Shown here piece after piece: positions 20,117-63,918 of a DNA stretch of 64,000 bases. Source of the stretch: a virus; the IMG/VR virus record IMGVR_UViG_2974543594_000001, positions 6,679 through 70,678 of that record. One strand, written 5' to 3'. The position numbers and the translations under genes were made by a program. Numbering within the stretch: the stretch's first letter is position 1; each line of letters opens with the position of its first letter. The notes beneath the pieces were generated by a model. It was not told the DNA's origin and searched no databases. It worked only from the letters and a program-made list of their open reading frames with translations.

Positions 20117-23100
20117 ATGGCTACCGGATTTGAAAAAGAACAACAGTTATCTGGTGTTGGGGCGCAAAAAGCACAAGAACTAAATCAAGCTACTCAGCAG
20201 AAACGTGTAGAGATGGGTGCTCCTGTTCCGGGAGTAGAGATTGATTTTCCTGTTGGTTCTCCGGGTTACCAGAGAGCACAGGAAGCTATTCGTTTAGCAG
20301 AAGCAGGCCCTAAATATACTCGTGAGCAGATGACTCAGATGCTTACTGCTGCTCCTACTGCTCCTGCTAATACTGGCAATATTAATGATTTTAGTATTCC
20401 AGAGGCACAGCCAATCACTCCTGAGATGCAGGCTAACTACGATGCTATTGCACGTACTAAACCTTTCTATCGCAAGATGATTAATCCTCAAGTGTCTCCA
20501 GAATTTGGTGGTACTGGTCCATTTGACCCGAACCATCCAAATTATCAGGCACCTACACAACAGGCTCAAATCCCCGCTAATCAGCAGTATCTGGAAGATT
20601 TGCAGTATATGCCTATGGCTGCTTTACAGCAGAAGTATGGGCCTCAAGCTGCAAGAGATAAGTTATCTCTGAATATTGCTAAAGCAAATACTGATGAATT
20701 CTCTGGTCAGGGTATTGAAGCCAGTGACATTGGTAATGCAGCTCAAGTCTGGTTAGGTAACACAGCTCGCTTTGCTACTGGTTTAGGTAATCTGGCTTTA
20801 CAGAATACTCAGGATTTAATTGCTGATGTAACTGGACGTGATGACCTAGCAGGTCAACCTACTCTGTTAGACCAAGCTGGTATTGATAAACCTCTGAAAG
20901 AATTTACAGAGGAACAAAGAGGTCAATACTCTCCGGGTATCCTGTATGAACAGTCTGTGATTGAAGCACAGAAAGAACAGTTCAAAAATCAGGGTGCTCA
21001 GCGTGAAGCTGCTGACATTGCTAAAGGTGATAATCCATTAGTCGCTGGTGCTAAGGAACAGTTACGTCAGTTTGTTAACACTGCTGAACAATATGGAGAT
21101 AAGCCGGGTGCATTAACTACTCTGATTGCAGAATCTGCTCCTGATTTATTAACTGGTGGTTTAGTAGGTAAGTTAGCTACTCGTGGTGCATTCAAAGAAC
21201 TGGTTAAAGAGTATGGTGAAGATTTTGCTACCAAGTTAGCTGCTACCAAATATGGTAGAGAAAAACTTCAGGATGCTGCTGAGAATGCATTTGTTGGTTA
21301 TGTTGGCTTCCAAGAAGCTGGCTCTAACATGCAGCAAACTCTCGACCAGATTGATGGTATGACTAATGCTCAGCTTGCTGAGAAGTCTCCTATGTACAGA
21401 GACCTCATCGCTGAAGGCATGTCTGAAGAACAAGCCAGAAGACAAGTACGTACTCAGGCCGGTAACGTCACAGCTGCTGTAGCAGGTACGCTGGGTGCGT
21501 TAACAGGTAAACTTGCTGCTCCATTTGAATCTCGAATTTTCTCTCCTTCATTATTAGAAGGTACAGGATTCTCAAGTGCTGCATCACGCATCCTTGGTAA
21601 TACGCTTAGAGAGACTGTTGAGGAAGCATCGCAAGGGGCTACTGGTCAATTTGGCTCTAATCTCGGGGTACGGACTTCTGCTGATGAATCTCAGTCCCTC
21701 TCTGAAGATATTGGTTCAAACGTTGCTGAGTCTGCTCTTGCTGGTGCGGGTATGGGTGCTTTCGGTTCGGCTGTTAGTGAAACACCTAGAGCAATTCAGG
21801 AAGGAATCCAGCAGGGTCGTAGTGCATTTAATGAGAGACAAGCTCAAAGAGAGCAGACCAGAGCACAGGACTTCAGAAACACTGTAAATACTGCTAACGA
21901 ATCTGTTCAGCAGACTTCTCCACAGCCTGACACTACTGCTACTACAGAAGCAGCCCCTGCTACTAAAGCTGTAGATGCTGTTACTGAACCAGCTGCAAAA
22001 GAAGTCTTTAAAGCTATCCCAGAAGAAGAAATCAGTTCTCCTGGCTCTATTCTGCGTATTGCTCGTGCAATTCGTAATCGTCAACTGGATGAAGCTTCAA
22101 GACGTGACCTTGCTACTGTTGGTAACAACGTTATCTCTGCTTATGAAGAAGCTCTGCCTAACATTCAGGCACAGATGCAATCTGCTCCAGAAGAACAGAA
22201 AGCTCAGTACCAGACTGCTATTGATAATATCAATGCAGTACTGAGTAATCCTGATGTACAAGCCATCAAGACTACTGCTGAGAGCTTTAAACTGACTCCT
22301 GATGAAATGACTAAAGTCATGGAATCACTTCCTTCTGAAATTACTCCAGAGACTTACCAGTCTCCAGAAGTACAGCAGGGAGTTAAATCTGTTCTGGCTC
22401 AAATGAATTTAGACGCTGCATCTATCACTCCTGAGACAGCAGATAAACTGATTAACTCAGCTGATGCTATTGGTTTAAGCCAACAAGACTTAAACAAGCT
22501 GAGAGTCATCTCTGCTACCGGTAAAGCCATGAGCCAGGTAGGTCAGGATGTACGTCAGGGTTCTGATGGATTTATTGGTATCCAGCAGTATCAGCAAGGT
22601 ATCTTCCGTGCATTAGCTCTGAATGATACTAAACGTGCTCAGGGTCTGTTAGACCATCTGAACCGTTTTGCTACGCACATGGAAACCAAAGCAGATGCCT
22701 TTGAACAAGCTGCTCAGAATTTCACTGGTAATCGGCCTGTAGAGGTAATCAACCCTACTACTGGTCAGCCATATATGTCACTGGATGGAAATCCTATGAC
22801 CTATCATCCTGTACGTTCTAAGAACTTAGTACAGGAAATCCGTAATGATGCTGCTGCTGTAAGACAAGCGCACACCATTACTGGTCAACTGGTAGATGGT
22901 AAGCCTGTTGATGTGCCTGCTCAGTCTGAGCCTATGGCTTCTGAAGATGTGAATTCTCAGGAACAGACTCCTGCTCCAGAGGCCACTTCTGAAGAAGCAC
23001 CTGTAGAAACTACTTCTGAGCAGACTTCTACAGAAGCTCCTACAGAGGCTTCTGAGAGCACGAATCAGGAAGAGGTACAAACACCTGCCGAGACTACAGA

Positions 23101-26100
23101 AACACAGCCAGAGGCTGTTACAGAAGCTCCAGCACAGGTTAATGAAGAACCTGTTCAGGGTGAGCTGTTTGATAAACCAGAGACTGTAGAATCTGATATT
23201 CAGATTCAGGAAGAGCCTACATCTGTTGAAACAGATTTAATGGATGAGTCGCAGTTAGACCTTGGTTTAGAAAAAGGTGTTAACTATGACATTCTGAATG
23301 GATTGCAGACAGAGACTGTACGTTCTGATGCTAAATCTACTTCAGATGTTGATAAAGAATACCAGGCTACTAACCAAGTTAAAAAATGGTTTAAGCCTAC
23401 TGGTAAACGCTCTGCATTCCTGAGAACTAGTAACTTCTCTGGAAGACTTAATAGCATCTTTACTAATGGTTCTAATCCTATTACTCAGATTCAGAATCTG
23501 TTTAAAGGGTTCATTAATCCTGAGCAAGTAACTGCTAAAGAAGTCAGTGTATTGCGTCAATTTGCTGGATTAGTTCCTGCTGTTGAACAATCACTGATTC
23601 AGTCTTGGGGTAAATTAACTCCTGAAGGTCAACGTATCTTCTGGGAAACCTATCCTGTCGAATACTTTGATGAAGTACGTAACATCAATGGTGAGAATGT
23701 TTATTTCTTACCTCAGCCAGTTATTGAAGCAATGACTGCTGGAATGATGCAGTGGTTTGTTCGTAATGCATCTGAAACTCTGTTCAATGATGACAGAGCA
23801 GTTATGGATATTCTTGGTTTAGATAACAAGACCAGACCTACTGTAGAACAGGTAGACCTTTTACGTGATGTAGGTACTGACCGTCAGAATATCATCGATG
23901 ACTTAAGCAGAGAGATTTTTGGAATCTTAGGTATCACTGCTGACCCTAATACTCCTATCTCTGTTCGTGATACTGTGTCTAAAGCACTGGCAGCCGAAGT
24001 ACTGAACGTCATGATTAATGCTGGTTTAGTTCAGGAAACTGTTGTTAAGAATAGTGAATTAGCTGCTGTTGGCTCAATTAAAGTTAATAGTTCAAACATC
24101 AAGAATTCTCGTGTGTTCATTAAAATGAATCCAGAGTCAGAAGCTTCCCTACAGTTAGTAAAACTGATGGAGGATTCTAATGACTTGTTGGGCCAGCTGA
24201 CTAACCCATCTCGTGAAAGAGCTAATGCATTCTTTGATGTTCCGCCTAAAGGGCAGTCAACCAAAGTTAAGAATGGTGGTGGTCAGGATATTCCCGAGAA
24301 GATGCTTGCTGCTCGTAACAAAGCTAGTAAACAACCTCACTTCATTAACGTGGGTCTGCATGACCTTCTGTTAGATAAGTTAGGTATTGAATGGACTGGC
24401 AGAATGTTAGGCATTCAATCTGAAGAGAATGCTAACGGTGCTCACCTGAAATCTATTCAGGGTTCTAATCGTACCATCGAACGAGACATTAACACTTTAG
24501 TTAATGGTTTAACTCGTATGGTAGAAGCAGGTAAAGACCTTGCTACTACCCCAATCTACTTTGCTTATAACGTCATCAGTAACTACCGTATGATGCTGAA
24601 CTCGGGTGACCTGAATCCACAGTCTGCTAAGTTACATCGTGAATTGGTTACTGTTGCACCTTCTACTATTGAGTTAAATAACCCTCTGCATGGTGCATTC
24701 CTTGATTACGCTATTGCTCAGGGCTTGGATATTTCTATTGATAAGCTGTCTTCTAATACAGCCAGAGAACGCTTAAATAAAGCTATTGATACTGGTCTAT
24801 TTAGGGATGCCATCAACATCTTGAAAGCTGCTGAGATTCAGGACTCTATTAGTGATGCTGATGCAGAGACTCTGTTACAGGCTGTTAATGCAGGCAAGGA
24901 GAAGACTAAAACTCTTCATGCACTGTATGCACAGGCTCAATACGAACTGGCTGTAGAGCAAGGTAAAGAGTCATTCCAGACTCACATCATGTTAGAACTT
25001 GATGGTGTTACTAACGGCCCATTTAACTCTATTATCCATCTTGGATTAAAAGATATTAACCAAGACCTTCTGGATAAACTGGAGAAGGGTGGTTTGTTCT
25101 ATGGTCAGTCTGACCGTCTGTATAACGATGCTGCTGAAGAACCAGGATTCTTAGACCTGTATAAGACTGCTGCTGCTGGTACGCAGGAGTATGTTAACAA
25201 TATGATGGACTCTGTACGGAATATTCCAAACCGTATTGCAGCTCTCAGCAGCAAATCTAAGCGTCAGCAGCAGAAAGAGTTGCGTGAGATTGAACGTCTG
25301 AAGAATCAGATGAGAGTTACTCTTGCTGCATCTAAATTAATTGGTGATGTGAACATCGTTGAAGGTGAAGATGTTGAACACCCAATTCAGATTGGTCGTG
25401 GATTACTTAAGAATCCTGTAACCGTAACAGTCTATTCTGGCGGTGCTAATGCCATTAATAGAAAGATTGCTATGGGTATTGTTAATGGTTACTACGAGGC
25501 AATTACTGAAGCATTAAGAGCAGTAGATTCAGCAACCACTGTTGAAGAAAGGGATGCTGCAATTGCTCATATCCAAGACCTGACTCAGACTACAAATGAG
25601 TTAACTTCTGCTCGTGTATTCCGCAATGGTGATTGGGTTAATATCGGAGAACCTATTAATTTAGGGTCTGATGTAACCCAATTTAAATTCTCTGGAGAAC
25701 AAATTGATGCTATCACTCAAAATATTAAAATCGGGATTGGCGCTGCTGTTAATCAGTCTATTGCTACTGAATTTGGTACTGTAGTTAAACGTGGCAAGAT
25801 GATGGTTTATGCTGCTGCCGTTATGCATGAAGTATTCATGTCACGTTGGAACAAAGAGGTATCTCGTTTAGAGGAAGAGCTTCGTAAAGCAGGTAAACTC
25901 TCTAAATTTGAGTCTCTGTCCCAGCAGCAATACAACGACATTAAGCAGTATCTGATTGGCTCTATGCCTATCTTCAATTCATGGTTCACTGCTAATAACT
26001 TAGATGTAGACCAGTTAAATACCGGTATTCTTCTGAGTGAAGAAGCACGTCAACCTGTTGATAATTACAGAATGGAATCAAGAGGTCGCAGAGAACTGGA

Positions 26101-29100
26101 TGGTAAAATGCGTAGGTCTACCTTTGGTGTAGACATGCCTACCTATACCGAACCGGGTACTCGTGTAATGCCTTTACTGGTTCAGTCTGTAGAAGCAGCC
26201 ATGCAAGCCATTGCTCGTGATATTAACCCGAATAACGCACTTAACGTATTTGATGGTTATATTAATGCTGTCGAGCATCTTGAGTCTGGCTCACAAGCCA
26301 TTAACCAAGGTGTATTCCAGAGCTGGAATGAATTCGATTTACTGCAAGACTTTACTAATCGCTTTGAACAAGCGATGGAAGGAGTTGATGTTGATGCTGA
26401 GCTAGATGTGGTTGCTGCCAATAGTCTGCAACAGTCATTTGACTCTATTGCTGAAGACCTTGGCTTAGAGCCGGGTATTTACCCAATTTCCCCGGAAATA
26501 CTGAATGACTTCTTAAAAGAGTTAAAGAAAGAAGCTGCTACTCAGACTGCTATCAAACAAGGTTTGTTAGGTGGTGAGGCTATCACTTCTATTAACCAGA
26601 TGACTGGCGCTAACATTCCATTCAATGTACAGAATGGTAAGCAGGTTACTGAGCAGACTGATGAGCTGATTGATACCAGAACTCCTTTGGAACAGTTAGT
26701 AGCTAATACTGAACTGCCTACTGTCGAATCTATTTCTCTGCCTTTAGGTAGAGTTACCATTCCTCCTAGCCGTCAAATGGCTGAGGCTTTAGATAGAAAT
26801 GGTAGAACTCTGCGTGGACATGAAGGTGTTAAAGTTCTGGCTAAAGGTGATGTGGTTGCTGCGGTAAGAGAAGCAGCTAAATCCCTGCCATCTCGTCAGA
26901 ATAAAATCACTGGATTTATTCTTGATAAGATTGAGAAAGCCATCCCTAATGACATTAATGTGTATGTAGGCTCCCCAGAGGCTCTGTCAGATGTTCAATG
27001 GAAACTGAATCCTGGTAGAAGAGTTAAGTTTACTTCTAACTTCTTAGGGCTTACAGAAGGCCAGAATATCTATATTGGTTCTCAGTCTATTGAGACAGTG
27101 ATGCATGAATTAATCCATGCTGCTACTGCCAATACTGTTCAGGCTTATTACACTGACCCAGCTAGTCTGACTCCAAATCAGAGAACTGAGGTTGCTTCTA
27201 TTGAAGCTCTCATGACTAAGTTTGTTAACGAGTACACATACGTTAACCCAGAAACAAATTCTGTAGTTAGTCTGATTAATGACCATATTGAGAGTGGTGA
27301 TATGGCTCAGGCTACTGCTGAATTCATTGCATGGGGTTTAGTTAACCCAAGAATGATTGATGCAATGACTCAGAAAACTGTTGCTGGTAAGGTCACTAAT
27401 GTACTGAAACAGATGGCTGATGCTATCAAGCGCCTGTTTGCAATTGGTTCTAATCCAGAAATTAACTCTTACTGGTCAAGACTGCTTGGGCATACTGTTG
27501 CATTGACTGACACTACAACCTCTGTGAGCACAGCTGATGAAACCAGTTTTGCACAGCGTAATGCTAACAACATTAACAGACTGGATGCTGAAACCTTATT
27601 CAATAAACTGAACCCAGGTAAAGCAACTCAAGACCACATCAATCATCTGACTGACACTCTGGATTATCTCCAGTCAAATATCGTTAGAGTGATTAAACAA
27701 TCTGGTCAACAGATTTCTGGTCTGGACCATTTCCAAGAGAAACTCTTGGTAGATAGCATTGACCCTGAGATTGATAAGTCTCCTGATGCTCTGATTGCTC
27801 ATGGTTTTGACATGAGTGAGAAAGAGGCGTTTGTCTTCAAGATGCTTCAGGTATCTATGAAGTATGGTCTGGAGAATTTCTCTCCAAGTGTTCTGGTAGC
27901 TCGTAGCCTGTATGCTCAGGCAAGAGACCAGTTGAAGGTTAGTGATTTCCTCACTGACCCTAACAACACGTCTGCTACTGAGATGGCTCTGGCTAAACAG
28001 AGATATGATGCTGTATTTGGTAATACTGCTATCACCACTGATGCTACCGGTCGTACTAATAGACTGGCTAACTTCATTGCACTGGCAGAAACTCATGAGC
28101 CTCTGAGAAATAAACTGGCTCAGATGAGTGTTAAACGTACTCGTTCAGCACCGGCCTCTACTATCAGAGAACACATTGGTGATTTAGTTAATTCCATTCT
28201 GACTTGGCTGTCAGGATTGGCTACTAAATCTCTGTCCAATGCTACTGTTGCTACTCGCTTAACTAAACTGGCTAAAAACATTAGTCATGTTGATAGTGAA
28301 GCCAGAGATAATCTGTTAGGTAGAGTTGAACGTGGTAGTGAAGAAATCTCACAGACTGTTCAGGATAAACTGAATGCCTTTGGTCACATGGTTAGAAACC
28401 AGTTACTCAAGGTACAGAAGATTGTTCCTAAGTCTGTAGCCTTTGGTATCAATGCTGGTTCTGCTGTATTCAATGACCAAGATGCTCAGGATGTGCGTAC
28501 AGCAATTACCACTATCATGATGAACATTCATCAGAATGGTAAGTTGGGTACTCTGGCTGAACTGGTTAATGAATTCATTGGTTCCAATGAAACTAACCAG
28601 ACTATTCATACTCTGTTAACTCAGAAGAATATGGCTGCTGATAGAGCACGTCAGATTATTCGTGAAATGGTTCCGGGTATGATTGAGCAGACTTTCGTTT
28701 CATTAAACCAGACTGAGAAAGAAGCTATTCAGAAGGTGGTTGCTAACACTGATATGGCTTACTTGTTTGCTAATGGATACAGCTTAGCTCGCCTGAATGA
28801 GTTACTGACTAATCCAAATGAACTGGCTAAAGAGATTGCTTCTATGGAATCTCAGCTCAATTCAATTGGTGCTCAGAATGCACCATTCTACATCAAGTCT
28901 GCTAAAGGCTTGGCTAAACAAATGGTGCATGGAGTTAGTCCACTGGTTTATCAGTTACCGAATGCTGCATCTATTGCTCGCTTAATCGGTACTGGCAAAG
29001 TCAGACCTAACGATACTGTCGTTAATTCAGCTACTCAGCTGATTGATACTCTAGCTTCACTGTCAGCTCTGACTGAATTGTCACAAGCTGATAAAGAAAC

Positions 29101-31006
29101 TGTGAGTAACGTCATTAGCAGAGAGATGACTAAAGGCGAACCAAATAACAATGGGATGACTTTTACGCTGAAATACTACAGCAGTTTACAGGGTGCTGAG
29201 TTAGCCAAGTCTGGTAAAAATCAATCTCTGGCAGCTGTAAAAGGTTATACGCCTACTCTGACAGACCCAAATAAAAAGGTCATTGTGGCATCCGTTTTAG
29301 ATGAGCCAAGTCTGGTTCGCAGAGGCTATGTCAGAGGTGCTCAGTTTGCTCGTGACCCGAATGACCTGAGTAAAGAACCAATGTACTACTACCACTCAAA
29401 TAATGGTGGTGAGCCTCGTTGGATTGCTGGGGTAATGAGCACCCTTCAAACCACCGTAGGTGGTGTAAACCCAATCTCAGGTAGAAGTGTTAATGGTTCA
29501 ATGACTCCGGGTATCTGGGGCAGCAAAGAGAAGACTACATTAGCTACCCTGAAACGTGGTCAAATTGATGACCTGTTTGATGCTAATAAGCCTATGCCTA
29601 CTGGATTCAGTAGCTACATGCAGCCTACTCTGAACAGGGCTGGTTCAATCATGGGATACTCTTATCAGATTCCTCGTGCTAACAAAGAAGCACATCTGGA
29701 TATTGATAATGATTTCACTAAAGTAATGGCGGCTTGGGAAGGTCGTATTGCTGAGGAGATTCAGGCTGAGAAATACAATGAGATGCTTCTTCAGAGATTG
29801 CGTGAGATGTATGTGAAGGATGCTCGCCAAGGCAATGCATACCAGTACATCACTATTAATAAGAACTCAACTGACCCACAGCTCAAAGAGATTTATGAAC
29901 TGATGCCAATTGAGATGAAAGAAGCTGCCAAAGAGATTTGGCCTAATGGTGATATCAAGGTACGTAAAGACTTACTGAATAATGCATTTGGTTATCGTGA
30001 GCCTTCAGTACTGAATATGTGGACTGGTCAGACTGGTTACTCTAAAGAGTTCCAGAAAGCCTTTGTGAGTATCGCAGAGACATTCTTAGGTAAGAATGCT
30101 GCTAAGTATCTCCGCTTAGGTGAGCGTGGGATTATGGAATTTGTGAAGGAAATGAAAGATTGGATTGTTGTACGTTCAGTAGTCGTATCAGCAGCCAACA
30201 TTGTTTCCAACATGGTTCACTTAGCGACTGTAGGTGTCAGTCCAGTTACTATGGCTAAAGACATGTCTGTAGCTGTACTGGCTGCTGAAGAATACAGAAG
30301 AAACGAGAAACTCATTAACGAGTATTCTCACTATCTGGCTGTAGGACATAATCCTAAGATGGCTGATGAGTATCAGAGAAAAATTTCTGAACTCAAAGAT
30401 TCACAGGCTCGTAACCCTGTTGCTGATTTAATCAAAGCTGGTTTACTGCCTACCATCGCAGAGGATTTAGGTCAGCAGGATGATTACTCTCTGAAAGATA
30501 AACTGTTAACTAAGATGGATGAATACACTTCTGCTGTTCCAGACAGTGTTAAAAGGGTTGCCAAGGAAGTTGCACTTTCAAGAGATAGTCACATCTACTT
30601 CTTACTGAACCGTTCAATTCAGTATGGTGACTTCGTTGCTAAGTATTCTCTGTATAAACAGCTGACTACTCGCAAGAATAATCCAATGGATAAAGATAGT
30701 GCTATTGCACGAGTAATGGATGAATTCGTTAACTATGACATTCTTCCTAGCCGTACCAGATTCTATCTGGATGCAATGGGATTAACTTGGTTCCTGAACT
30801 ATAAGATTAGAATTCAGAAAGTTATTCTCAGAACGATTCGTGAGAATCCACTGAGAGCACTGTTCCTGATGTTCAGTAATAGTTGGGAATCAAACCTGCC
30901 GAACATCACTGATGCTAACTTAGTGACTGGCAGCCTGAATTATAACATTGGGTTTGGTACTGCATTGAATGGATTCACAGTACACCCGCTGGTTGAACTG
31001 TACTAA
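20117..31006 (+). CDS. virion-encapsidated RNA polymerase (vRNAP, N4 gp50-like)
   Basis: 3629 aa. Central region has T7-like motifs. Motif A region is DGVTNGPFNSIIHLG at about aa 1629. Motif B-like tyrosine is in GGLFYGQSD. Motif C-like is VFDGY at about aa 2044. A D-to-D spacing of about 415 aa fits the N4 mini-vRNAP. Confidence 0.8.
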   Translation: MATGFEKEQQLSGVGAQKAQELNQATQQKRVEMGAPVPGVEIDFPVGSPGYQRAQEAIRLAEAGPKYTREQMTQMLTAAPTAPANTGNINDFSIPEAQPITPEMQANYDAIARTKPFYRKMINPQVSPEFGGTGPFDPNHPNYQAPTQQAQIPANQQYLEDLQYMPMAALQQKYGPQAARDKLSLNIAKANTDEFSGQGIEASDIGNAAQVWLGNTARFATGLGNLALQNTQDLIADVTGRDDLAGQPTLLDQAGIDKPLKEFTEEQRGQYSPGILYEQSVIEAQKEQFKNQGAQREAADIAKGDNPLVAGAKEQLRQFVNTAEQYGDKPGALTTLIAESAPDLLTGGLVGKLATRGAFKELVKEYGEDFATKLAATKYGREKLQDAAENAFVGYVGFQEAGSNMQQTLDQIDGMTNAQLAEKSPMYRDLIAEGMSEEQARRQVRTQAGNVTAAVAGTLGALTGKLAAPFESRIFSPSLLEGTGFSSAASRILGNTLRETVEEASQGATGQFGSNLGVRTSADESQSLSEDIGSNVAESALAGAGMGAFGSAVSETPRAIQEGIQQGRSAFNERQAQREQTRAQDFRNTVNTANESVQQTSPQPDTTATTEAAPATKAVDAVTEPAAKEVFKAIPEEEISSPGSILRIARAIRNRQLDEASRRDLATVGNNVISAYEEALPNIQAQMQSAPEEQKAQYQTAIDNINAVLSNPDVQAIKTTAESFKLTPDEMTKVMESLPSEITPETYQSPEVQQGVKSVLAQMNLDAASITPETADKLINSADAIGLSQQDLNKLRVISATGKAMSQVGQDVRQGSDGFIGIQQYQQGIFRALALNDTKRAQGLLDHLNRFATHMETKADAFEQAAQNFTGNRPVEVINPTTGQPYMSLDGNPMTYHPVRSKNLVQEIRNDAAAVRQAHTITGQLVDGKPVDVPAQSEPMASEDVNSQEQTPAPEATSEEAPVETTSEQTSTEAPTEASESTNQEEVQTPAETTETQPEAVTEAPAQVNEEPVQGELFDKPETVESDIQIQEEPTSVETDLMDESQLDLGLEKGVNYDILNGLQTETVRSDAKSTSDVDKEYQATNQVKKWFKPTGKRSAFLRTSNFSGRLNSIFTNGSNPITQIQNLFKGFINPEQVTAKEVSVLRQFAGLVPAVEQSLIQSWGKLTPEGQRIFWETYPVEYFDEVRNINGENVYFLPQPVIEAMTAGMMQWFVRNASETLFNDDRAVMDILGLDNKTRPTVEQVDLLRDVGTDRQNIIDDLSREIFGILGITADPNTPISVRDTVSKALAAEVLNVMINAGLVQETVVKNSELAAVGSIKVNSSNIKNSRVFIKMNPESEASLQLVKLMEDSNDLLGQLTNPSRERANAFFDVPPKGQSTKVKNGGGQDIPEKMLAARNKASKQPHFINVGLHDLLLDKLGIEWTGRMLGIQSEENANGAHLKSIQGSNRTIERDINTLVNGLTRMVEAGKDLATTPIYFAYNVISNYRMMLNSGDLNPQSAKLHRELVTVAPSTIELNNPLHGAFLDYAIAQGLDISIDKLSSNTARERLNKAIDTGLFRDAINILKAAEIQDSISDADAETLLQAVNAGKEKTKTLHALYAQAQYELAVEQGKESFQTHIMLELDGVTNGPFNSIIHLGLKDINQDLLDKLEKGGLFYGQSDRLYNDAAEEPGFLDLYKTAAAGTQEYVNNMMDSVRNIPNRIAALSSKSKRQQQKELREIERLKNQMRVTLAASKLIGDVNIVEGEDVEHPIQIGRGLLKNPVTVTVYSGGANAINRKIAMGIVNGYYEAITEALRAVDSATTVEERDAAIAHIQDLTQTTNELTSARVFRNGDWVNIGEPINLGSDVTQFKFSGEQIDAITQNIKIGIGAAVNQSIATEFGTVVKRGKMMVYAAAVMHEVFMSRWNKEVSRLEEELRKAGKLSKFESLSQQQYNDIKQYLIGSMPIFNSWFTANNLDVDQLNTGILLSEEARQPVDNYRMESRGRRELDGKMRRSTFGVDMPTYTEPGTRVMPLLVQSVEAAMQAIARDINPNNALNVFDGYINAVEHLESGSQAINQGVFQSWNEFDLLQDFTNRFEQAMEGVDVDAELDVVAANSLQQSFDSIAEDLGLEPGIYPISPEILNDFLKELKKEAATQTAIKQGLLGGEAITSINQMTGANIPFNVQNGKQVTEQTDELIDTRTPLEQLVANTELPTVESISLPLGRVTIPPSRQMAEALDRNGRTLRGHEGVKVLAKGDVVAAVREAAKSLPSRQNKITGFILDKIEKAIPNDINVYVGSPEALSDVQWKLNPGRRVKFTSNFLGLTEGQNIYIGSQSIETVMHELIHAATANTVQAYYTDPASLTPNQRTEVASIEALMTKFVNEYTYVNPETNSVVSLINDHIESGDMAQATAEFIAWGLVNPRMIDAMTQKTVAGKVTNVLKQMADAIKRLFAIGSNPEINSYWSRLLGHTVALTDTTTSVSTADETSFAQRNANNINRLDAETLFNKLNPGKATQDHINHLTDTLDYLQSNIVRVIKQSGQQISGLDHFQEKLLVDSIDPEIDKSPDALIAHGFDMSEKEAFVFKMLQVSMKYGLENFSPSVLVARSLYAQARDQLKVSDFLTDPNNTSATEMALAKQRYDAVFGNTAITTDATGRTNRLANFIALAETHEPLRNKLAQMSVKRTRSAPASTIREHIGDLVNSILTWLSGLATKSLSNATVATRLTKLAKNISHVDSEARDNLLGRVERGSEEISQTVQDKLNAFGHMVRNQLLKVQKIVPKSVAFGINAGSAVFNDQDAQDVRTAITTIMMNIHQNGKLGTLAELVNEFIGSNETNQTIHTLLTQKNMAADRARQIIREMVPGMIEQTFVSLNQTEKEAIQKVVANTDMAYLFANGYSLARLNELLTNPNELAKEIASMESQLNSIGAQNAPFYIKSAKGLAKQMVHGVSPLVYQLPNAASIARLIGTGKVRPNDTVVNSATQLIDTLASLSALTELSQADKETVSNVISREMTKGEPNNNGMTFTLKYYSSLQGAELAKSGKNQSLAAVKGYTPTLTDPNKKVIVASVLDEPSLVRRGYVRGAQFARDPNDLSKEPMYYYHSNNGGEPRWIAGVMSTLQTTVGGVNPISGRSVNGSMTPGIWGSKEKTTLATLKRGQIDDLFDANKPMPTGFSSYMQPTLNRAGSIMGYSYQIPRANKEAHLDIDNDFTKVMAAWEGRIAEEIQAEKYNEMLLQRLREMYVKDARQGNAYQYITINKNSTDPQLKEIYELMPIEMKEAAKEIWPNGDIKVRKDLLNNAFGYREPSVLNMWTGQTGYSKEFQKAFVSIAETFLGKNAAKYLRLGERGIMEFVKEMKDWIVVRSVVVSAANIVSNMVHLATVGVSPVTMAKDMSVAVLAAEEYRRNEKLINEYSHYLAVGHNPKMADEYQRKISELKDSQARNPVADLIKAGLLPTIAEDLGQQDDYSLKDKLLTKMDEYTSAVPDSVKRVAKEVALSRDSHIYFLLNRSIQYGDFVAKYSLYKQLTTRKNNPMDKDSAIARVMDEFVNYDILPSRTRFYLDAMGLTWFLNYKIRIQKVILRTIRENPLRALFLMFSNSWESNLPNITDANLVTGSLNYNIGFGTALNGFTVHPLVELY

Positions 31007-55598: not shown

Positions 55599-56837
55599 CT
55601 ACGAAAGCATATAATTACTTTGACGGATATATTTAGACAGGTTGTTAGACAGCTTAGCGACAGGGATACGCTTACCAGATATCTGAGATGCAATAGCAGA
55701 CAGCATGTTGCTATCAGCAATCTGTGCAAAGATATCGATGTAGTTCTGACGTACATGGTTCATGTACAGAGGATGACACTTAAAGCAATCATGGATTGCA
55801 ATCAGTGCAAATGGCTTATGAGCCAACATCTTCTCGATGATTTCAATGAGTTCTCTTCGAACCCAATGAGGAATCATGTGAACATTGAGGTGGTCAATAA
55901 ACTCAATCAGAACAGCAGATACAAATTTATGGGATTCAGTTAATTTAAGAGCCTGTGCAAGCCTTGTATCATCTACTGAATAGTTGACGATACCTTTCGT
56001 ATTAGAAGCCGTCAGAAGCTCATACACACGCTGTACTTTGAGCAAATCGTAGTTAGCACGACGATTCATCTCACGAACAATCATCCCATCTACAGAGTGA
56101 ATGACATTCGCTGCAAGTGACAGACCAGCTTTCTGACCTTGGTTAACCCAATAGCGGTGAGTGAACGAGCTATTCAGCTCATTAACTTCAAAGCTATCTT
56201 CCATTGGAACCATGACTTTAACTACAGCATTGAATCCATCTGGAAGAGTCCAGTGATGTTGTAGAGCATTTGCCTGCCATAAGGCAATCAAGTCATCACG
56301 GAGCATGTTTGCACCTGGAGCAATGATTTGAACCATCTCATAGAACTTCTGAAGCTCTATGGTGTTCTCACCAAACAGGTTTACAGGATTAGCTCTGGAC
56401 CCATAGAAATGGGTCATAGTCGCATCCTTGGTATGAGAACGTTCAATCTTGTCCAGTTTGCCATCCAGTAAGTCACCCATGACTTTATAGCCATCGGTGT
56501 ATGCATCATGACGTACATCAGGATTAACCATGTTCACAGTCTCTGCTGTGACTTTACAGCCTGTCAGTGCTGCCATGCACTGTAGACCAGATGCAGTAGC
56601 ATCCATACCTACCAGATATCCTGTAGGCAGTCCTGCCTTGGTATCTTCATAGCACAACTTACCTGCGTAGAATTGTGCAGGTTCATCTGCATCATCCACC
56701 AAACCAGATAAGTTATCTTTATTTGCTTCGAACCAGTTTAACCGGTCTTCAAACAACTCCTTGTCTAAACCAAAGGAGTTAGCAATATCTAATTTGATAT
56801 ACTGGAACGGAGTGAACGTCTGCATTTTGAGTCTCAC
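55599..56837 (-). CDS. phage RNAPII large subunit (N4 gp16-like; C-terminal half of a T7-like RNAP)
   Basis: 412 aa. GMDATASGLQCMAALTG resembles T7 DGSCSGIQHFSAM (motif A). THFYGS is motif B-like. IAIHDCF is motif C. Confidence 0.8.
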   Translation of the reverse strand: MRLKMQTFTPFQYIKLDIANSFGLDKELFEDRLNWFEANKDNLSGLVDDADEPAQFYAGKLCYEDTKAGLPTGYLVGMDATASGLQCMAALTGCKVTAETVNMVNPDVRHDAYTDGYKVMGDLLDGKLDKIERSHTKDATMTHFYGSRANPVNLFGENTIELQKFYEMVQIIAPGANMLRDDLIALWQANALQHHWTLPDGFNAVVKVMVPMEDSFEVNELNSSFTHRYWVNQGQKAGLSLAANVIHSVDGMIVREMNRRANYDLLKVQRVYELLTASNTKGIVNYSVDDTRLAQALKLTESHKFVSAVLIEFIDHLNVHMIPHWVRRELIEIIEKMLAHKPFALIAIHDCFKCHPLYMNHVRQNYIDIFAQIADSNMLSAIASQISGKRIPVAKLSNNLSKYIRQSNYMLS

Positions 56838-57043
56838 TTATTAAGTTGAGAGAAAGTTTGGATAATTTTATCTGCGTAATACTTTTTAGTTTGAGGCTGT
56901 AAAAGCCAGCAGCCCATACAATGGAACTCACACTTACCCCAATCAGCTATATTGAGATAATTACCTTTGCAAGCTGCTGCTGTATTATTTGATACAGCCC
57001 AATATCTTAATTCTGACAAAATAATTAAAAGTTCCTTATTCAT
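56834..57043 (-). CDS. small Cys4 protein, MNxELIxIL paralog family
   Basis: ATG at 57043 inside track ORF 56834..57220. MNKELLIILSEL...C-x11-C-x3-C-x2-C. Confidence 0.5.
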   Translation of the reverse strand: MNKELLIILSELRYWAVSNNTAAACKGNYLNIADWGKCEFHCMGCWLLQPQTKKYYADKIIQTFSQLNK

Positions 57044-57272
57044 CAGGAATGATTCCCAGCAGCCTCCCTGCTGAGTCCAGACCAAAGATGGTCTGTTTAA
57101 TTTCATCCTCTGACATATAGAACAATGCACATTTAGTTTTGTCGTGATTCTCACCACAGAACTTTTCACATGCAGGATGGGTACTACAGAAGTGAGTTTC
57201 CAACTCATCCGGGATATCACGTAACAACAGAGTGATTTTGATGAGTTGTTCTGGTTTAGATAATTCAGCCAT
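57036..57272 (-). CDS. small Cys-rich protein, distant member of the same family
   Basis: 78 aa. ELSKPEQLIKITLLL N-terminus and a C-x5-C-x3-C...C pattern. Confidence 0.4.
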   Translation of the reverse strand: MAELSKPEQLIKITLLLRDIPDELETHFCSTHPACEKFCGENHDKTKCALFYMSEDEIKQTIFGLDSAGRLLGIIPDE

Positions 57273-58195
57273 TATTCCTCCACTGGAACGAGTTCTTTAT
57301 CAGCCAACTGAAGTATGGCTTTACGATAAGTATTACCCTGATAGGACACATGGTACCCCTGGCAATAAGTACGACCACGTTTGTCATACTTGTGAGTCAG
57401 ATAAAACCTGTTTCCTTCGTTAATTAACATGGCAAATACCTTCATGGATTCACGTTCCATTTTCAGGAACGATTCCACTCGTGCTTGCCATTCATCATGA
57501 GTTTCCTCACTCTTTGGTGAGTCCAGATGCTTACGGTTATCACGAATATTTCGGATAACACGGTCATCAAGTGCAAACGCTACTGAATTAAATCTGTTGA
57601 TATTATCCAGACAGATATCCAGTTCATGATGATTGTTCTTCAGGATTAGAGAATCCCATTCAATAGATAGATACCCACTGCCTTTGTTATCTTTAACAGG
57701 TCTTGGTGGGACTACCATTGGAGGAAGATACTGATACTGATTGATGAGTTTGAGAGTTTTTGGTTCAAGCTGGATACGACTAACCAATTCCATTGAACCA
57801 GTGTTACTGAGCTTGGCTGGAATTACATCTACCAAATCTACGATTGCTGCTAAACCAATAAGTTCTCCAGCAGTTCGTATGGCTTCTTTCTGAGACATGT
57901 TTTTAATCATGCCTGAAACCATACCAACTATCTGGGTGTACTTGGCTACACCGAACTGAGCTAATGAACCAGCTACATCGATATAGAAATCTTCAAATAT
58001 ATCTGAATCCAGAATGGCTAATCGACGGTTCTTACTTTCAAAGTAATCACCCATCTGCCATTCTTTGGCTGCCTCTACTGCCTTATTAACTAGCGCCATA
58101 ATATCTGGTGACTCTTTTAATTCTTTTCTTATGAGGTCACGAGCTTGATGTTTTGAATACATAGTTTCAATGAGGAGTTGAGTGTCATAATTCAT
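57272..58195 (-). CDS. phage RNAPII small subunit (N4 gp15-like; N-terminal half of a T7-like RNAP)
   Basis: 307 aa. YDKRGRTYCQGYHVSYQGNTYRK matches the T7 RNAP DxRGR...PQGND region. Confidence 0.75.
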   Translation of the reverse strand: MNYDTQLLIETMYSKHQARDLIRKELKESPDIMALVNKAVEAAKEWQMGDYFESKNRRLAILDSDIFEDFYIDVAGSLAQFGVAKYTQIVGMVSGMIKNMSQKEAIRTAGELIGLAAIVDLVDVIPAKLSNTGSMELVSRIQLEPKTLKLINQYQYLPPMVVPPRPVKDNKGSGYLSIEWDSLILKNNHHELDICLDNINRFNSVAFALDDRVIRNIRDNRKHLDSPKSEETHDEWQARVESFLKMERESMKVFAMLINEGNRFYLTHKYDKRGRTYCQGYHVSYQGNTYRKAILQLADKELVPVEE

Positions 58196-58906: not shown

Positions 58907-58938
58907 GATTACCTCTGATTGTTGAATTCCACCCCTAA

Positions 58939-58951: not shown

Positions 58952-58972
58952 AGGAGCGAAGCGACAGAAAAA

Positions 58973-59203: not shown

Positions 59204-59385
59204 AGTATTCTTTCACCTAATTCAAGAAATTTAGTTATATAAAATTTTTCTGAGGTAAATACTTTTTTCATTAAAGGGCAGGAATCACATTCAACACTAT
59301 CACAACTAAATAAATCTTTAGTCTCATGACATAGTTTTTCTGTACTACGAATAGCTCTAAGAATAACTATCAATTCATTATTCAC
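59200..59385 (-). CDS. small Cys4 protein, MNxELIxIL paralog family
   Basis: GTG start. MNNELIVILRAI...C-x8-C-x4-C-x2-C. Confidence 0.45.
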   Translation of the reverse strand: MNNELIVILRAIRSTEKLCHETKDLFSCDSVECDSCPLMKKVFTSEKFYITKFLELGERIL

Positions 59386-59557
59386 AAGAAATACCTATTA
59401 CATATCTTATGCCCATTATGTATTCAGTAGGTCCAGATAAGATGCAATATGGGCATCTAATTTTTCTGCACTTTGGATTATTAAAACTATTTAAGCAGAT
59501 GTTATAATTCTCCTTCTTAGATATCTCATTAAGAATAGTTAATAATTCTTTATTCAT
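59378..59557 (-). CDS. small Cys4 protein, MNxELIxIL paralog family (not in the ORF track)
   Basis: 59 aa: MNKELLTILNEISKKENYNICLNSFNNPKCRKIRCPYCILSGPTEYIMGIRYVIGISCE. GGAGAG RBS. Confidence 0.5.
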   Translation of the reverse strand: MNKELLTILNEISKKENYNICLNSFNNPKCRKIRCPYCILSGPTEYIMGIRYVIGISCE

Positions 59558-59724
59558 ATTATTCTCTCCCCAAATTGAATTAAGTGGTATGCATAATTAT
59601 CAATATGTTTTCTATCAATACAACAATTACGACATGATATTCCAGCACAATTTACATCTTTAATTTTATAACAAAGATGTTTATCCAAAATGGATGAGAG
59701 AATAATAATTAATTCTTGGTTCAT
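59554..59724 (-). CDS. small Cys4 protein, MNxELIxIL paralog family (not in the ORF track)
   Basis: 56 aa: MNQELIIILSSILDKHLCYKIKDVNCAGISCRNCCIDRKHIDNYAYHLIQFGERII. Stop overlaps the next ATG (ATGA). Confidence 0.5.
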   Translation of the reverse strand: MNQELIIILSSILDKHLCYKIKDVNCAGISCRNCCIDRKHIDNYAYHLIQFGERII

Positions 59725-59733
59725 ACATACCCC

Positions 59734-60000
59734 TTAAAAGGGCATGGTACTTCCAATGACTACACTGAAAATAGCATCCCTGAGAGTTTTGAAATAACGT
59801 GTACCAACATAGTACATGTTCTTTTTATTAACAGGGCGCTTGAGAATGTATGCTGATGTACCATTAATGTGGACACCCCATAATTTCTCTTCACGACTGT
59901 AAGTCACTGTATACTCAGGAACAAATCCCAGATTAACAGTTCTTACTTTACTGGTTTCTTTCACTTTCTTTGACATATTGATATCCTCTTGGATTGACAA
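59734..60000 (-). CDS. hypothetical protein
   Basis: 88 aa basic protein, unrelated to the paralog family. Confidence 0.4.
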   Translation of the reverse strand: MSIQEDINMSKKVKETSKVRTVNLGFVPEYTVTYSREEKLWGVHINGTSAYILKRPVNKKNMYYVGTRYFKTLRDAIFSVVIGSTMPF

Positions 60001-60044
60001 CTATCTAACAAGACATTGATATTGGACTACCAATATCGATAGCC

Positions 60045-60269
60045 CTATTTATAGAGTCTTTTATTAGTAACTATTATTTGATTGGAATATCCAAATACTT
60101 CTTTAATACCTAAAGGACAATGGTCACATCCTCTTTTTGTTCTACACCATTCTAATTTATCAAATAGTATGTACTCACAGAGTTCATCTATTGGACCTAT
60201 ATCATGTGCCATTCGAGATGTAGCTTTTAATCTCATGGCTCTGAGTATTTCTATTAATTCAGGATTCAT
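60045..60269 (-). CDS. small Cys4 protein, MNxELIxIL paralog family
   Basis: MNPELIEILRAM...C-x10-C-x5-C-x2-C. Confidence 0.5.
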   Translation of the reverse strand: MNPELIEILRAMRLKATSRMAHDIGPIDELCEYILFDKLEWCRTKRGCDHCPLGIKEVFGYSNQIIVTNKRLYK

Positions 60270-60483
60270 TTAATACTCTACTGGTTTTAGATACACCTGA
60301 TGGATAGTTACTTTCTTGTTCAACAGATGCAAATATTGGGCAGTTATGGCAACTGACATGAGCGCATCTTGGAATAGAATCCATATTATCCATATCGCAT
60401 ACAGTCCTACATAAATCATCTTTGGTTTCTCTGTAGCTGCTATTTACTATCGAATAGATTATTTGAGTTAATTCATTATTCAT
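60259..60483 (-). CDS. small Cys-rich protein, MNxELIxIL paralog family
   Basis: MNNELTQIIYSIV...CRTVC...CAHVSCHNC. Confidence 0.5.
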   Translation of the reverse strand: MNNELTQIIYSIVNSSYRETKDDLCRTVCDMDNMDSIPRCAHVSCHNCPIFASVEQESNYPSGVSKTSRVLNES

Positions 60484-60512
60484 GACTATCTCTCAGCGGC
60501 ATGTTAAAGCCC

Positions 60513-60680
60513 TCATTTCGAGGGCTTAGCGATTGTTCTGATGAGGACACCTAAGTAATAGGGTAGAGATATGATTCCAACCATTACACAGAACAGGAAC
60601 CATACTGCTGATGCTACAAACCAGAACAACCCAATGAGCGTGCGCAGCACGATGAACAGCAACAACAGGAATATATTCAT
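60513..60680 (-). CDS. small hydrophobic membrane peptide (not in the ORF track)
   Basis: 55 aa: MNIFLLLLFIVLRTLIGLFWFVASAVWFLFCVMVGIISLPYYLGVLIRTIAKPSK. ATG overlaps the upstream stop (ATGA). Confidence 0.4.
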   Translation of the reverse strand: MNIFLLLLFIVLRTLIGLFWFVASAVWFLFCVMVGIISLPYYLGVLIRTIAKPSK

Positions 60681-60859
60681 TTGATGACCTCACATGAATC
60701 AGTAGTTAACTTGATTGCACTACGAGGAATCCCGTTGGCAATCTTCTCTTTGACACACTTCATTTGATGCTGGTATTGCACTGTATCTTCATCAACAATG
60801 GTTATTGTTATCTTACCGAAACAAACCATAAACAGTAGAAACACTGCTAATAGACGCAT
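60677..60859 (-). CDS. small secreted or lipoprotein-like protein
   Basis: ATG at 60859 (GGAGG upstream). MRLLAVFLLFMVCFGK signal-like N-terminus. The track start is TTG inside the upstream terminator. Confidence 0.4.
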   Translation of the reverse strand: MRLLAVFLLFMVCFGKITITIVDEDTVQYQHQMKCVKEKIANGIPRSAIKLTTDSCEVIK

Positions 60860-60868
60860 GTCCCCTCC

Positions 60869-60896
60869 AAAAAATAAAGGGAACCCGAAGGTTCCC
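60869..60896 (-). terminator. strong intrinsic terminator after GC-rich 143-aa gene
   Basis: GGGAACC-uucg-GGUUCCC then UUUAUUUUUU on the minus strand. Confidence 0.65.
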
Positions 60897-60904
60897 AATA
60901 TCGA

Positions 60905-61336
60905 TTACGATGCCAGTGCATTCAGAATCGCACTGACTGCGCTGGTGGATGCGGTATGCTCGGTCTGCTCTTTACGGCGATAGAGCTGAACCTGCAACTT
61001 CGGCAGCTCCTGACCGCTACCAGCTTCCAGTTCACCACCCATTTTGACCAGAGCTTTCAGCAGCTCATTACGAGCAGCAGCCTGGTTGTTCCAGACTTCG
61101 TTGTTACCACGGATAACCAGCTCGCTCATGGTATCCAGCGGCAGGCCATACGGCAGAGACAGGAACGTATCCACCATATCCCCGTTTTCATCAGGCATCG
61201 GAACGGTTACGCCGATGTTGATGAAGAATTCAGCTTGCGGACGGTCGCCAGACTGCTGACGATTTCCGTTACCCTTACCACCCAGAGCTGCGCCGATGAT
61301 AGAACGAGCTTCGTTAGAGTTGTTGATAGTAGCCAT
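60905..61336 (-). CDS. hypothetical protein on GC-rich island
   Basis: 143 aa. Host-like GC and codon usage. Flanked by upstream GAA-triloop hairpins and a downstream terminator. Confidence 0.5.
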   Translation of the reverse strand: MATINNSNEARSIIGAALGGKGNGNRQQSGDRPQAEFFINIGVTVPMPDENGDMVDTFLSLPYGLPLDTMSELVIRGNNEVWNNQAAARNELLKALVKMGGELEAGSGQELPKLQVQLYRRKEQTEHTASTSAVSAILNALAS

Positions 61337-61379
61337 GATAAATACCTCTCAAGTTAAACGGTTTTTGGATTATTCCACC

Positions 61380-61394
61380 AGCGACGAAGTCGCT
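61380..61394 (-). promoter_or_regulatory. C-GAA-G triloop hairpin AGCGAC-GAA-GTCGCT, candidate vRNAP hairpin promoter
   Basis: 6-bp stem and GAA loop. About 44 nt upstream of ATG 61336. Confidence 0.4.
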
Positions 61395-61431
61395 CTTACA
61401 GGAGAAAGGAGAACTTAAGGAAGAACTCCAC

Positions 61432-61448
61432 CACCGTCGAAGACGGTG
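61432..61448 (-). promoter_or_regulatory. C-GAA-G triloop hairpin CACCGTC-GAA-GACGGTG, candidate vRNAP hairpin promoter
   Basis: 7-bp stem and GAA loop. Core GTCGAAGAC is identical to the hairpin at 63902-63918. Abuts the stop of 61456..61833. Confidence 0.4.
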
Positions 61449-61455
61449 ATGAAGA

Positions 61456-61833
61456 TTAGTACCGGAAGATAAAGACTGGTTTACCCAGCTTGGTCATGTA
61501 GTCAATCATGTGCTTAGTACCACGGGATTCACCATCCCAGAATGCTACCAGCACATCAGCTACATCACCCATGTCTTCATTACGAATGAAGCCTGCACGT
61601 CTAGGCTCTGACTTCCAGTCAGCAGGGAACTTATGGATAGGTAGCTTGTAGTGATAGTACCAAAGGTTAAACCCTGTGATATCAGTACCACGAGCCATAC
61701 CACACACCAGTTCTGAATCATCTGCGATGCTACCATCCATAACTAATTGCTTGATGCATGAGTCCATGTACACCATGTCGGTGAAGTCCCTTCCACCGGC
61801 TACGATTACTTTCAAAAGACCTCCTGAATACAC
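61456..61833 (-). CDS. DUF2493-like (SLOG superfamily, Rossmann-fold) protein
   Basis: 125 aa. VIVAGGRDFTD...GMARGTD...FPADW...AGFIRNEDM...VLVAFWDGESRGT matches the DUF2493 block order. Confidence 0.55.
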   Translation of the reverse strand: MYSGGLLKVIVAGGRDFTDMVYMDSCIKQLVMDGSIADDSELVCGMARGTDITGFNLWYYHYKLPIHKFPADWKSEPRRAGFIRNEDMGDVADVLVAFWDGESRGTKHMIDYMTKLGKPVFIFRY

Positions 61834-62054
61834 GGATGATTGAACGTAACAATGCGACGAGGAGCGCAGTTATCACTACGTGTTACCTGCTTAGTCAGCT
61901 CCCTCTTCTTCATGCGAGCTACGTCTGCTTTGGTACCCTGGATTAATGACTTACGCATCATGGTTATCTCCATGCTTAATAGCTAAGTAAACGACGATGC
62001 CACCTACAATGGCACCAACTAAAGACCAGAATAACTCTGTGTACCAGATATCCA

Positions 62055-63231: not shown

Positions 63232-63244
63232 GTACCGAAGGTAC
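63232..63244 (-). promoter_or_regulatory. C-GAA-G triloop hairpin GTACC-GAA-GGTAC, candidate vRNAP hairpin promoter
   Basis: 5-bp stem and GAA loop. 30 nt upstream of ATG 63202, in a 256-bp AT-rich non-coding region. Confidence 0.4.
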
Positions 63245-63901: not shown

Positions 63902-63918
63902 TAGAGTCGAAGACTCTA
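63902..63918 (-). promoter_or_regulatory. C-GAA-G triloop hairpin TAGAGTC-GAA-GACTCTA, candidate vRNAP hairpin promoter
   Basis: 7-bp stem and GAA loop. Core GTCGAAGAC shared with 61432-61448. About 100 nt upstream of the first early gene. Confidence 0.4.

Follow-up and report, generated by a model that had tools for sequence, protein, structure and literature searches.

A GC-rich cassette near the early end of an N4-like Klebsiella phage genome is very likely its gp2 early transcription unit

Why should one small gene in a phage genome be so much richer in GC than everything around it, and sit in a cassette with hairpins and a terminator of its own? The question arises from a 64,000-nucleotide (nt) stretch of viral DNA, referred to here as the window (IMG/VR record IMGVR_UViG_2974543594_000001, positions 6,679 to 70,678), in which positions 60869-61448 hold a 143-amino acid (aa) open reading frame (ORF) preceded by two triloop hairpins and followed by a strong stem-loop. 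A first-pass annotation of the letters alone had recognised neither the hairpins as promoters nor the protein. We find that the hairpins fit the promoter type of the N4 virion RNA polymerase (vRNAP) and that the protein fits the N4 gp2 family, and we consider it very likely that the cassette serves an N4-like (Schitoviridae) phage as its gp2 early transcription unit. Coordinates of the features discussed are collected in Table 1.

By sequence comparison, the 143-aa protein is a homologue of gp2 of coliphage N4. BLASTP aligns the two at 34% identity over 115 aa (E=2e-18), and a tblastn search of the window with N4 gp2 returns this ORF as its sole match (E=1.7e-15). The ORF also matches phrog_4099 (E=5e-37). 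When it was searched by tblastn against a phage collection, homologues were found in 199 records, all of them N4-like (Schitoviridae) and drawn from many genera and hosts. A family profile search gave 388 database relatives; each of the 120 listed carries PF26984 as its precomputed Pfam family, and those listed that come from long contigs have contigs of ~70 kb, the size of these phage genomes. The PF26984 label came from that database search only, and the local copy of Pfam-A held no family for the ORF. Annotations of the relatives vary widely: many read 'RNAP1 subunit A', which is a mislabel, and others read 'N4 gp2-like', 'ssDNA-binding protein', 'BLASTX gp2' or even 'integrase'.

In N4, gp2 is an early protein that binds single-stranded DNA (ssDNA) without sequence specificity and also binds RNAPII, the polymerase made of gp15 and gp16 (PMC4496689). 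It brings RNAPII to melted, AT-rich middle promoters, and gp2 amber mutants are without middle transcription (PMC4496689). The 143-aa protein is accordingly predicted, from its homology, to bind ssDNA and to act as the cofactor that brings the phage RNAPII to middle promoters. The putative partner is encoded in the same window, where N4 gp15 and gp16 find tblastn matches at 57287-57745 (E=6.5e-39) and 55602-56825 (E=1.6e-82), respectively. The comparison also bears on the N4 record itself. The RefSeq coding sequence of N4 gp2 (N4 record 586-1071) starts at 586, inside or just after the start region of the N4 promoter P2. The likeness to all homologues sets in at 685, at an internal ATG served by a good Shine-Dalgarno sequence (GGAGAG). 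Counted from this ATG, the protein has a mass of 14.3 kDa and an isoelectric point (pI) of 5.20, the pI quoted for N4 gp2 by Boon et al. (PMC7145618). The annotated N4 gp2 start is therefore probably too far upstream.

The Gly/Asn-rich N-terminus pointed out in the first-pass annotation spans residues 1-31 and is predicted to be disordered, with a predicted local distance difference test score (pLDDT) below 50. An AlphaFold model built with 45 family members reached a pLDDT of 71 overall and 80-89 in the core (residues 31-110); it consists of a β-hairpin and a long helix, with both ends disordered. A sequence search of the PDB with the single ORF gave a chance match only (E=0.55), and a search with the family profile matched no chain. 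No fold match was found either. The protein also has neither the sequence or fold likeness to PDB 6QLC nor the basic pI that characterise the Drc family.

The window belongs to Klebsiella phage KpCHEMY26 (MN163281; Schitoviridae, genus Pylasvirus; N4-like). The region around the cassette (60600-61800) matches that phage at 100% identity and phage Pylas at 95%, and a window position equals the record position minus 6678. In the orientation of Pylas, the region is 2.2-3.4 kb away from the left end of the genome and just inside the terminal repeat, and all genes around it are on the minus strand of the window. This is the early region of an N4-like genome. Elsewhere in the window is a giant vRNAP gene, whose product shares 27% identity with N4 gp50 over the polymerase domain and conserves the catalytic residues K437, R440, D559 and D951 (mini-vRNAP numbering; N4 numbering verified).

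The two GAA-triloop hairpins lie exactly where the first-pass annotation had placed them. On the plus strand both are perfect inverted repeats with 3-nt loops: AGCGAC-GAA-GTCGCT with a 6-bp stem at 61380-61394 (proximal to the gene) and CACCGTC-GAA-GACGGTG with a 7-bp stem at 61432-61448 (distal). Folded as ssDNA, they reach -5.2 kcal/mol (z=-3.8 against shuffles) and -6.9 kcal/mol (z=-3.0), respectively, and they have in common a 19-nt direct repeat of the form TCCACC-stem-GAAG. Since the gene is on the minus strand, the plus strand on which the hairpins were first described is the template strand. This matters for their interpretation. The vRNAP of N4 reads its early promoters as DNA hairpins that supercoiling extrudes from the template strand, and these need a short stem that ends in a C:G closing pair, and a 3-nt loop with a 5' G and a 3' A (PMC4496689). 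Initiation by vRNAP at such promoters is resistant to rifampicin and depends on gyrase and the host single-stranded DNA-binding protein. Recognition further involves -11A/G, -10G, -8G and +1C, with a purine at template -1, and -8G is contacted by vRNAP residue R904 (PMC4496689).

Both cassette hairpins, and two more that lie nearer to the genome end (63902 and 63232), carry every one of these features except -8G. At all four sites a C-GAA-G triloop on the template supplies -12A, -11A, -10G and a -9C:-13G closing pair. On the coding strand GGTGGA directly follows both cassette hairpins, and TGGA would occupy -1 to +3 at all four sites as in N4 P1 and P2, with the predicted G(+1) 11 nt from the loop centre. 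The predicted starts of the cassette, 61429 and 61376, are 53 nt apart. A strict rule that demands a stem no shorter than 5 bp, a loop of TTC and TGGA at a set distance picks out just these four sites in the 64-kb window, all on the minus strand between 61.3 and 63.9 kb and within ~3.5 kb of the genome end; in 300 dinucleotide shuffles it finds a mean of 0.013 sites and a maximum of 1. The same rule recovers N4 P1. The sites are thus confined to the early end and the early strand of a genome that encodes a giant vRNAP. No sigma-70-like site was found on the minus strand upstream of the gene, and an Rfam search in E-value mode over 60500-61900 gave no match. These observations suggest that both cassette hairpins are N4-type early promoters, probably read by the injected virion polymerase.

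The other two promoter candidates are not annotated in the record and are conserved in relatives. The tail of the fourth is nearly identical to that of N4 P2 (TTTTGGATGA). The ORF behind the third (63459-63800) resembles N4 gp1 unconvincingly (E=0.012). One further hairpin was considered and not counted. At 58939-58951 on the minus strand, upstream of a macro-domain gene (58403-58906), a 5-bp TTC hairpin, CAGCC-TTC-GGCTG, is followed by TTAGGGGTGGAA, which puts TGGA 5 nt beyond the distance set by the rule; the hairpin may be a variant promoter for the macro-domain and RNAPII genes, or nothing.

Conservation was examined in eight phages: KpCHEMY26, Pylas and MY01 (Pylasvirus), B2 and FSL SP-058 (Ithacavirus), TR2 (Triduovirus), Pollock (Pollockvirus) and As2, whose record gives no genus, hence at least four genera. 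In all eight, a tandem pair of hairpins 51-53 nt apart precedes the orthologue and a terminator stands behind it, with a differing upstream neighbour gene. Across genera, the leader is 77-88% conserved, as compared with 64-70% for the coding sequence, and one block of 34 nt, which takes in the proximal promoter, is identical in 8/8. In TR2 the distal hairpin is built on a wholly different stem (ACTGGC/GCCAGT), with loop (TTC) and start (GGTGGAG) unchanged, which amounts to a full compensatory replacement. Pylas and MY01 keep the third hairpin, and the other five phages have a related version with GAGTC. Beyond this group, a hairpin promoter stands directly upstream of the gp2 homologue in N4, EC1-UPM and KP8 (the KP8 record calls it 'early promoter'), and the position at the early end behind such a promoter is the same in these three as in all eight close relatives.

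Between the proximal start and the gene, a Shine-Dalgarno sequence (GAGAGG, 61345-61350) lies 8 nt before the ATG. At the other end, GGGAACC-TTCG-GGTTCCC (60879-60896) is followed by TTTATTTTTT and was flagged by a terminator scan. The RNA folds at -16.5 kcal/mol into a 7-bp stem with five GC pairs and a UUCG loop; a GC-rich stem-loop, a U-tract directly after it and a place at the 3' end of a gene are what define a Rho-independent terminator. The first-pass annotation had located this element correctly, and two details are amended: the stem begins 8 rather than 9 nt past the stop codon, and the tail reads U3-A-U6 rather than U9. The stem covaries among the relatives (GGGAACC, GGGAUACC, GGGGAGCC), and a terminator follows the gp2 homologue in N4, EC1-UPM, KP8, S6, JWAlpha and ZC03 as well. 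Directly after the U-tract come the Shine-Dalgarno sequence and start codon (ATG, 60859) of the gene that follows, and ahead of the downstream early genes no further in-register hairpin promoter was found. These features point to a terminator that probably leaks and would set the ratio of gp2 to downstream products, such that the downstream genes probably depend on read-through.

The GC shift that first drew attention to the cassette is real. At 0.535, as compared with 0.416 for the window, the GC content of the ORF is the highest of 81 ORFs (median 0.408, standard deviation 0.044; ~2.9 standard deviations above the median). It is not peculiar to this phage. Every orthologue checked exceeds its surroundings, by 6 to 15 points in eight close relatives and by 3 to 7 points in N4, EC1-UPM, KP8, S6, JWAlpha, ZC03 and Pokken, and the shift therefore belongs to the gene and does not mark a recent import. 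Codon choice accounts for it. Leucine is encoded by CTG in 13 of 15 cases (87%, as compared with 27% in the rest of the window), proline by CCG in 83% (13%), isoleucine by ATC in 86% (35%), arginine by CGT in 86% (39%) and asparagine by AAC in 77% (44%). The major codons GCT, GGT, TCT and CGT are preferred although they end in T, and GCC does not occur at all, so that neither plain GC pressure nor average host DNA would yield the pattern. The codon adaptation index (CAI) of the ORF, 0.574, ranks third of 81 (median 0.266) behind a 480-aa gene and the major capsid gene, and GC and CAI are correlated across genes (rho = 0.60). The high GC reflects selection for enterobacterial major codons. The overlapping antisense ORF, taken for a side effect in the first-pass annotation, has a CAI of 0.28, equal to the window median, and is annotated in no related record; it is not a gene.

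The 480-aa gene deserves a note of its own. Located at 46153-47595 on the minus strand (phrog_10440, weak matches to ATPase-labelled families), it is the second outlier in GC (0.529), and its CAI of 0.628 exceeds that of every other ORF in the window, the major capsid gene included. Very high expression may be presumed for its product as well.

Homology, motif architecture, statistics, conservation, covariation and codon bias are shown by the sequences themselves; initiation sites, hairpin extrusion, binding to ssDNA and RNAPII, and expression level are inferred. From homology and from the promoter and terminator architecture, a working model for the cassette may be put together as follows. 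The packaged vRNAP would be injected with the DNA at infection. Negative supercoiling would extrude the two inverted repeats on the template (plus) strand, each with a stable C-GAA-G triloop, and the polymerase would recognise hairpin and loop and begin its transcripts with the G at 61429 or 61376, 11 nt away from the centre of the loop. The tandem promoters would yield mRNAs of ~560 and ~505 nt, which stop at the terminator (GGGAACC-UUCG-GGUUCCC and U-tract) and encode the 15-kDa acidic gp2 homologue. The abundant protein would bind ssDNA at middle promoters and recruit RNAPII there. A protein needed fast and in bulk would favour host major codons, giving a GC content of 53.5% in a genome of 41.6%. 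Judged from promoter architecture, codon bias and the analogy with N4 and the phage LUZ7 (below), expression of the gp2-like gene is very probably among the strongest of the early genes. The autonomous early gene of the first-pass annotation survives as a discrete promoter-gene-terminator unit.

Several observations weigh against this model or temper it. Template -8 is T at the distal and A at the proximal site, and T and C at the other two, where N4 P1 and P2 have G. The vRNAP recognition residues K114, R119, W129 and D901 fall in poorly aligned or gapped regions in the comparison with N4; K114, R119 and W129 in particular cannot be aligned reliably, so the details of promoter recognition may differ. 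The invariance of the proximal hairpin in all eight phages means that it contributes no evidence of covariation. The start sites 61429 and 61376 are predictions from the sequence for this phage and genus. The fold of the gp2-like protein matches no ssDNA-binding fold, and the predicted ssDNA binding derives from homology alone. Finally, the CAI weights (Sharp & Li 1987) describe E. coli and not Klebsiella.

Table 1 Features of the cassette and related elements in the window
Feature	Coordinates	Strand	Details
N4 gp2 homologue ORF	60905..61336	-	143 aa, ATG..TAA, 15.3 kDa, pI 4.97
Antisense ORF	60956..61357	+	133 aa; by-product of the codon-biased, GC-rich sense frame
Intrinsic terminator	60869..60900	-	GGGAACC-UUCG-GGUUCCC then UUUAUUUUUU
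5' leader of proximal transcript (predicted)	61337..61375	-	40 nt counting the +1 base at 61376
Proximal hairpin promoter (predicted)	61374..61394	-	coding AGCGAC-TTC-GTCGCT-GGTGGA; predicted +1 G at 61376
Distal hairpin promoter (predicted)	61427..61448	-	coding CACCGTC-TTC-GACGGTG-GTGGA; predicted +1 G at 61429
Third hairpin promoter (predicted)	63902..63918	-	TAGAGTC-TTC-GACTCTA-CTGGA; +1 at 63899; upstream of first early ORF 63459-63800
Fourth hairpin promoter (predicted)	63232..63244	-	GTACC-TTC-GGTAC-TCTTGGATGA; +1 at 63227; upstream of DUF4326 gene 62891-63202
vRNAP gene	20117..31006	+	3629 aa; predicted reader of the hairpin promoters
RNAPII genes, N4 gp15 and gp16 homologues	55602..58195	-	predicted partner of the gp2-like protein

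How do other explanations fare? The first-pass annotation favoured a recently acquired gene, a host-derived or foreign moron with an anti-defence or host-modulating role whose GC betrays its transfer. The genomic GC of Klebsiella is ~57%, to which the top GC value in the window is close; the unit does have its own promoters and terminator, and the protein has no match in the local Pfam copy and no fold match. Set against this are the homology to N4 gp2 and a family that is syntenic in 199 Schitoviridae records across many genera and hosts, with phage-sized long contigs (~70 kb) among the listed database relatives. Every orthologue checked is 3-15 points richer in GC than its own flanks; the major-codon pattern (GCT, GGT, CGT, TCT, no GCC) is unlike average GC-rich host DNA, and the major capsid gene is among the other high-CAI genes. 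Horizontally acquired morons are marked by a patchy distribution, by an anomaly of composition that orthologues do not share, or by homologues in cellular genomes, and this is not the profile of the gp2-like gene. An anti-defence or host-modulating role also fits poorly with a characterised homologue that serves as cofactor for the phage's own RNAPII (PMC4496689), the genes for which are in the window. We regard the idea of a recent acquisition as largely refuted and its probability as very slight. The idea that the gene encodes the replicative single-stranded DNA-binding protein (SSB) of the phage, not a transcription cofactor, fares little better. The records of Pollock, Pokken and C121 do call the orthologue an ssDNA-binding protein, and N4 gp2 itself binds ssDNA without sequence specificity (PMC4496689). 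A separate homologue of N4SSB (gp45), the replicative SSB and late activator, is however encoded at 33806-34456 (E=5e-32), which argues that the 143-aa ORF is the transcription cofactor; N4 gp2 binds RNAPII and its amber mutants are specifically defective in middle transcription (PMC4496689), and no match to an oligonucleotide/oligosaccharide-binding (OB) fold or to any other SSB was found. An SSB identity therefore seems highly improbable.

More can be said for a role of the hairpins at the level of RNA, with the distal one terminating the upstream operon, or either or both stabilising the mRNA from its 5' untranslated region, and the gene transcribed by read-through or from some other promoter. 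In RNA that comes from promoters further upstream, the distal hairpin extends to a 13-bp stem (61426-61454, including G·U pairs) of -18 to -21 kcal/mol in 8/8 phages, and its outer arm is compensated even in TR2. It also stands a few nt past the stop codon of whichever gene is upstream; the terminator scan flags it, and the Pylas record labels it 'terminator' (L001 4322-4354). Its tail, however, is weakly U-rich (GUUCUUCCUU) and in Pollock not U-rich, and the proximal hairpin has neither an extended stem nor a U-tract. Both hairpins carry the full N4 signature including GGTGGA at the 11-nt distance, which a terminator does not need and which also precedes two other early genes and gp2 of N4 and KP8. 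We consider an RNA role in place of the promoters unlikely; a dual role of the distal hairpin is compatible with the promoters and does not replace them. Given its weakly U-rich tail, not U-rich in Pollock, a combined terminator and promoter is possible, if unproven. One may go further and tentatively propose that the distal hairpin is bifunctional (RNA terminator or attenuator and DNA promoter) and forms with the proximal copy a conserved tandem 'amplifier' that arose independently in the Humphriesvirinae/Triduovirus/Pollockvirus lineage and in LUZ7, where it serves the unrelated Drc. We lean against this proposal, without thinking it far-fetched. If true, it would mean strong convergent selection for flooding the cell with a middle-transcription SSB.

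The neighbourhood of the presumed gp2 unit offers some further observations. Directly upstream of the cassette, 61456-61833 (minus strand) encodes a SLOG/YspA-like protein with weak likeness to nucleoside 2-deoxyribosyltransferase, a PF10686 match below the gathering cut-off (E=1.5e-4), a phrog_289 match and the annotation 'GTP binding protein'. The gene has the same place in the Pylasvirus phages, As2 and TR2; an extra small ORF displaces it in FSL SP-058, and it carries no annotation in the stretches of B2 and Pollock that were examined. Between the gp2 unit and the RNAPII genes, 58192-60483 (minus strand) holds ~7 small paralogous Cys-rich ORFs of 56-79 aa that start MN(N/Q/K/P/R)ELI..IL, contain CxxC-like motifs and occupy a very AT-rich stretch (GC 0.27-0.35). 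Several are annotated in Pylas and unannotated in the KpCHEMY26 record. The N4 gp15-like RNAPII subunit (57272-58195, minus strand) is mislabelled 'virion RNA polymerase subunit' in the records of both phages.

These results correct the annotation of the gene to an N4 gp2-like RNAPII cofactor, in place of a 'virion RNAP subunit' or a generic DNA-binding protein. They add four predicted, hitherto unannotated early promoters to KpCHEMY26 and its relatives, and the 'terminator' element of Pylas is seen to carry the full promoter signature. For phage-therapy candidates such as KpCHEMY26, the suspicion of horizontally acquired cargo at this locus is removed. The tandem promoters and extreme codon optimisation suggest that a very high cofactor dosage is a general need of the N4-type early-to-middle switch, and the variable -8 position offers a handle on the drift of vRNAP promoter specificity between genera. 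The unit is of a known kind; what may be new is that the tandem arrangement is conserved, that -8G has been lost and that the distal hairpin is possibly bifunctional.

No paper on promoters or transcription in Pylasvirus or Humphriesvirinae was found in the literature. N4 P1 reads GTTGC-TTC-GCAAC-TTATGGA, and P2, upstream of N4 gp2, reads GAAGC-TCC-GCTTC-TTTTGGATG in the same register as P1 and the cassette hairpins. The candidate promoters described here share with these a stem of 5-7 bp and a 3-nt loop closed by a C:G pair, with A at -12, a purine at -11 and G at -10. On the coding strand, positions -4 and -1 are T, and the GGA of the start stands exactly 11 nt from the centre of the loop. 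They too are located on the early strand at the early end of the genome, and their template loop, GAA, is the same as in P1. They differ in that template -8 is not G and in that their function is predicted. N4, EC1-UPM and KP8 also have one promoter directly before gp2, whereas here there are two in tandem, 53 nt apart.

The gp2-like protein shares with N4 gp2 34% identity over the conserved core, a similar size, an acidic pI, a place behind a hairpin promoter and before a strong terminator, and co-occurring gp15 and gp16 homologues; the N4 terminator is GGACTACC-TTCG-GGTAGTCC-T5 (in RNA, GGACTACC-UUCG-GGUAGUCC-U5). Its N-terminus, in contrast, is longer, Gly/Asn-rich and probably disordered, its codon optimisation is much stronger (a GC excess of 12 points as compared with 3 in N4), and N4 gp2 is characterised where the present protein is known from its gene. 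In KP8, a Klebsiella N4-like phage of another subfamily (Enquatrovirinae), the gp2 analogue is found 'right after putative promoter P3' (PMC6950046). Promoters P1-P4 of that phage share the stem-loop-TGGA design, with P3 directly upstream of the gp2 analogue, but their coding-strand loops are TCC rather than TTC and a single promoter precedes gp2. The tandem arrangement has a direct precedent in LUZ7. Its Drc (gp14) is a functional counterpart, an early ssDNA-binding protein that recruits RNAPII (PMC9163698; PMC7145618), although its pI is basic (9.16) where that of the gp2-like protein is acidic (4.97). Drc is driven by two tandem hairpin early promoters and is the most highly expressed phage gene, contributing up to 64% of phage transcripts (PMC9163698); its promoters are 33 nt apart, as compared with 53 nt for the predicted pair described here.

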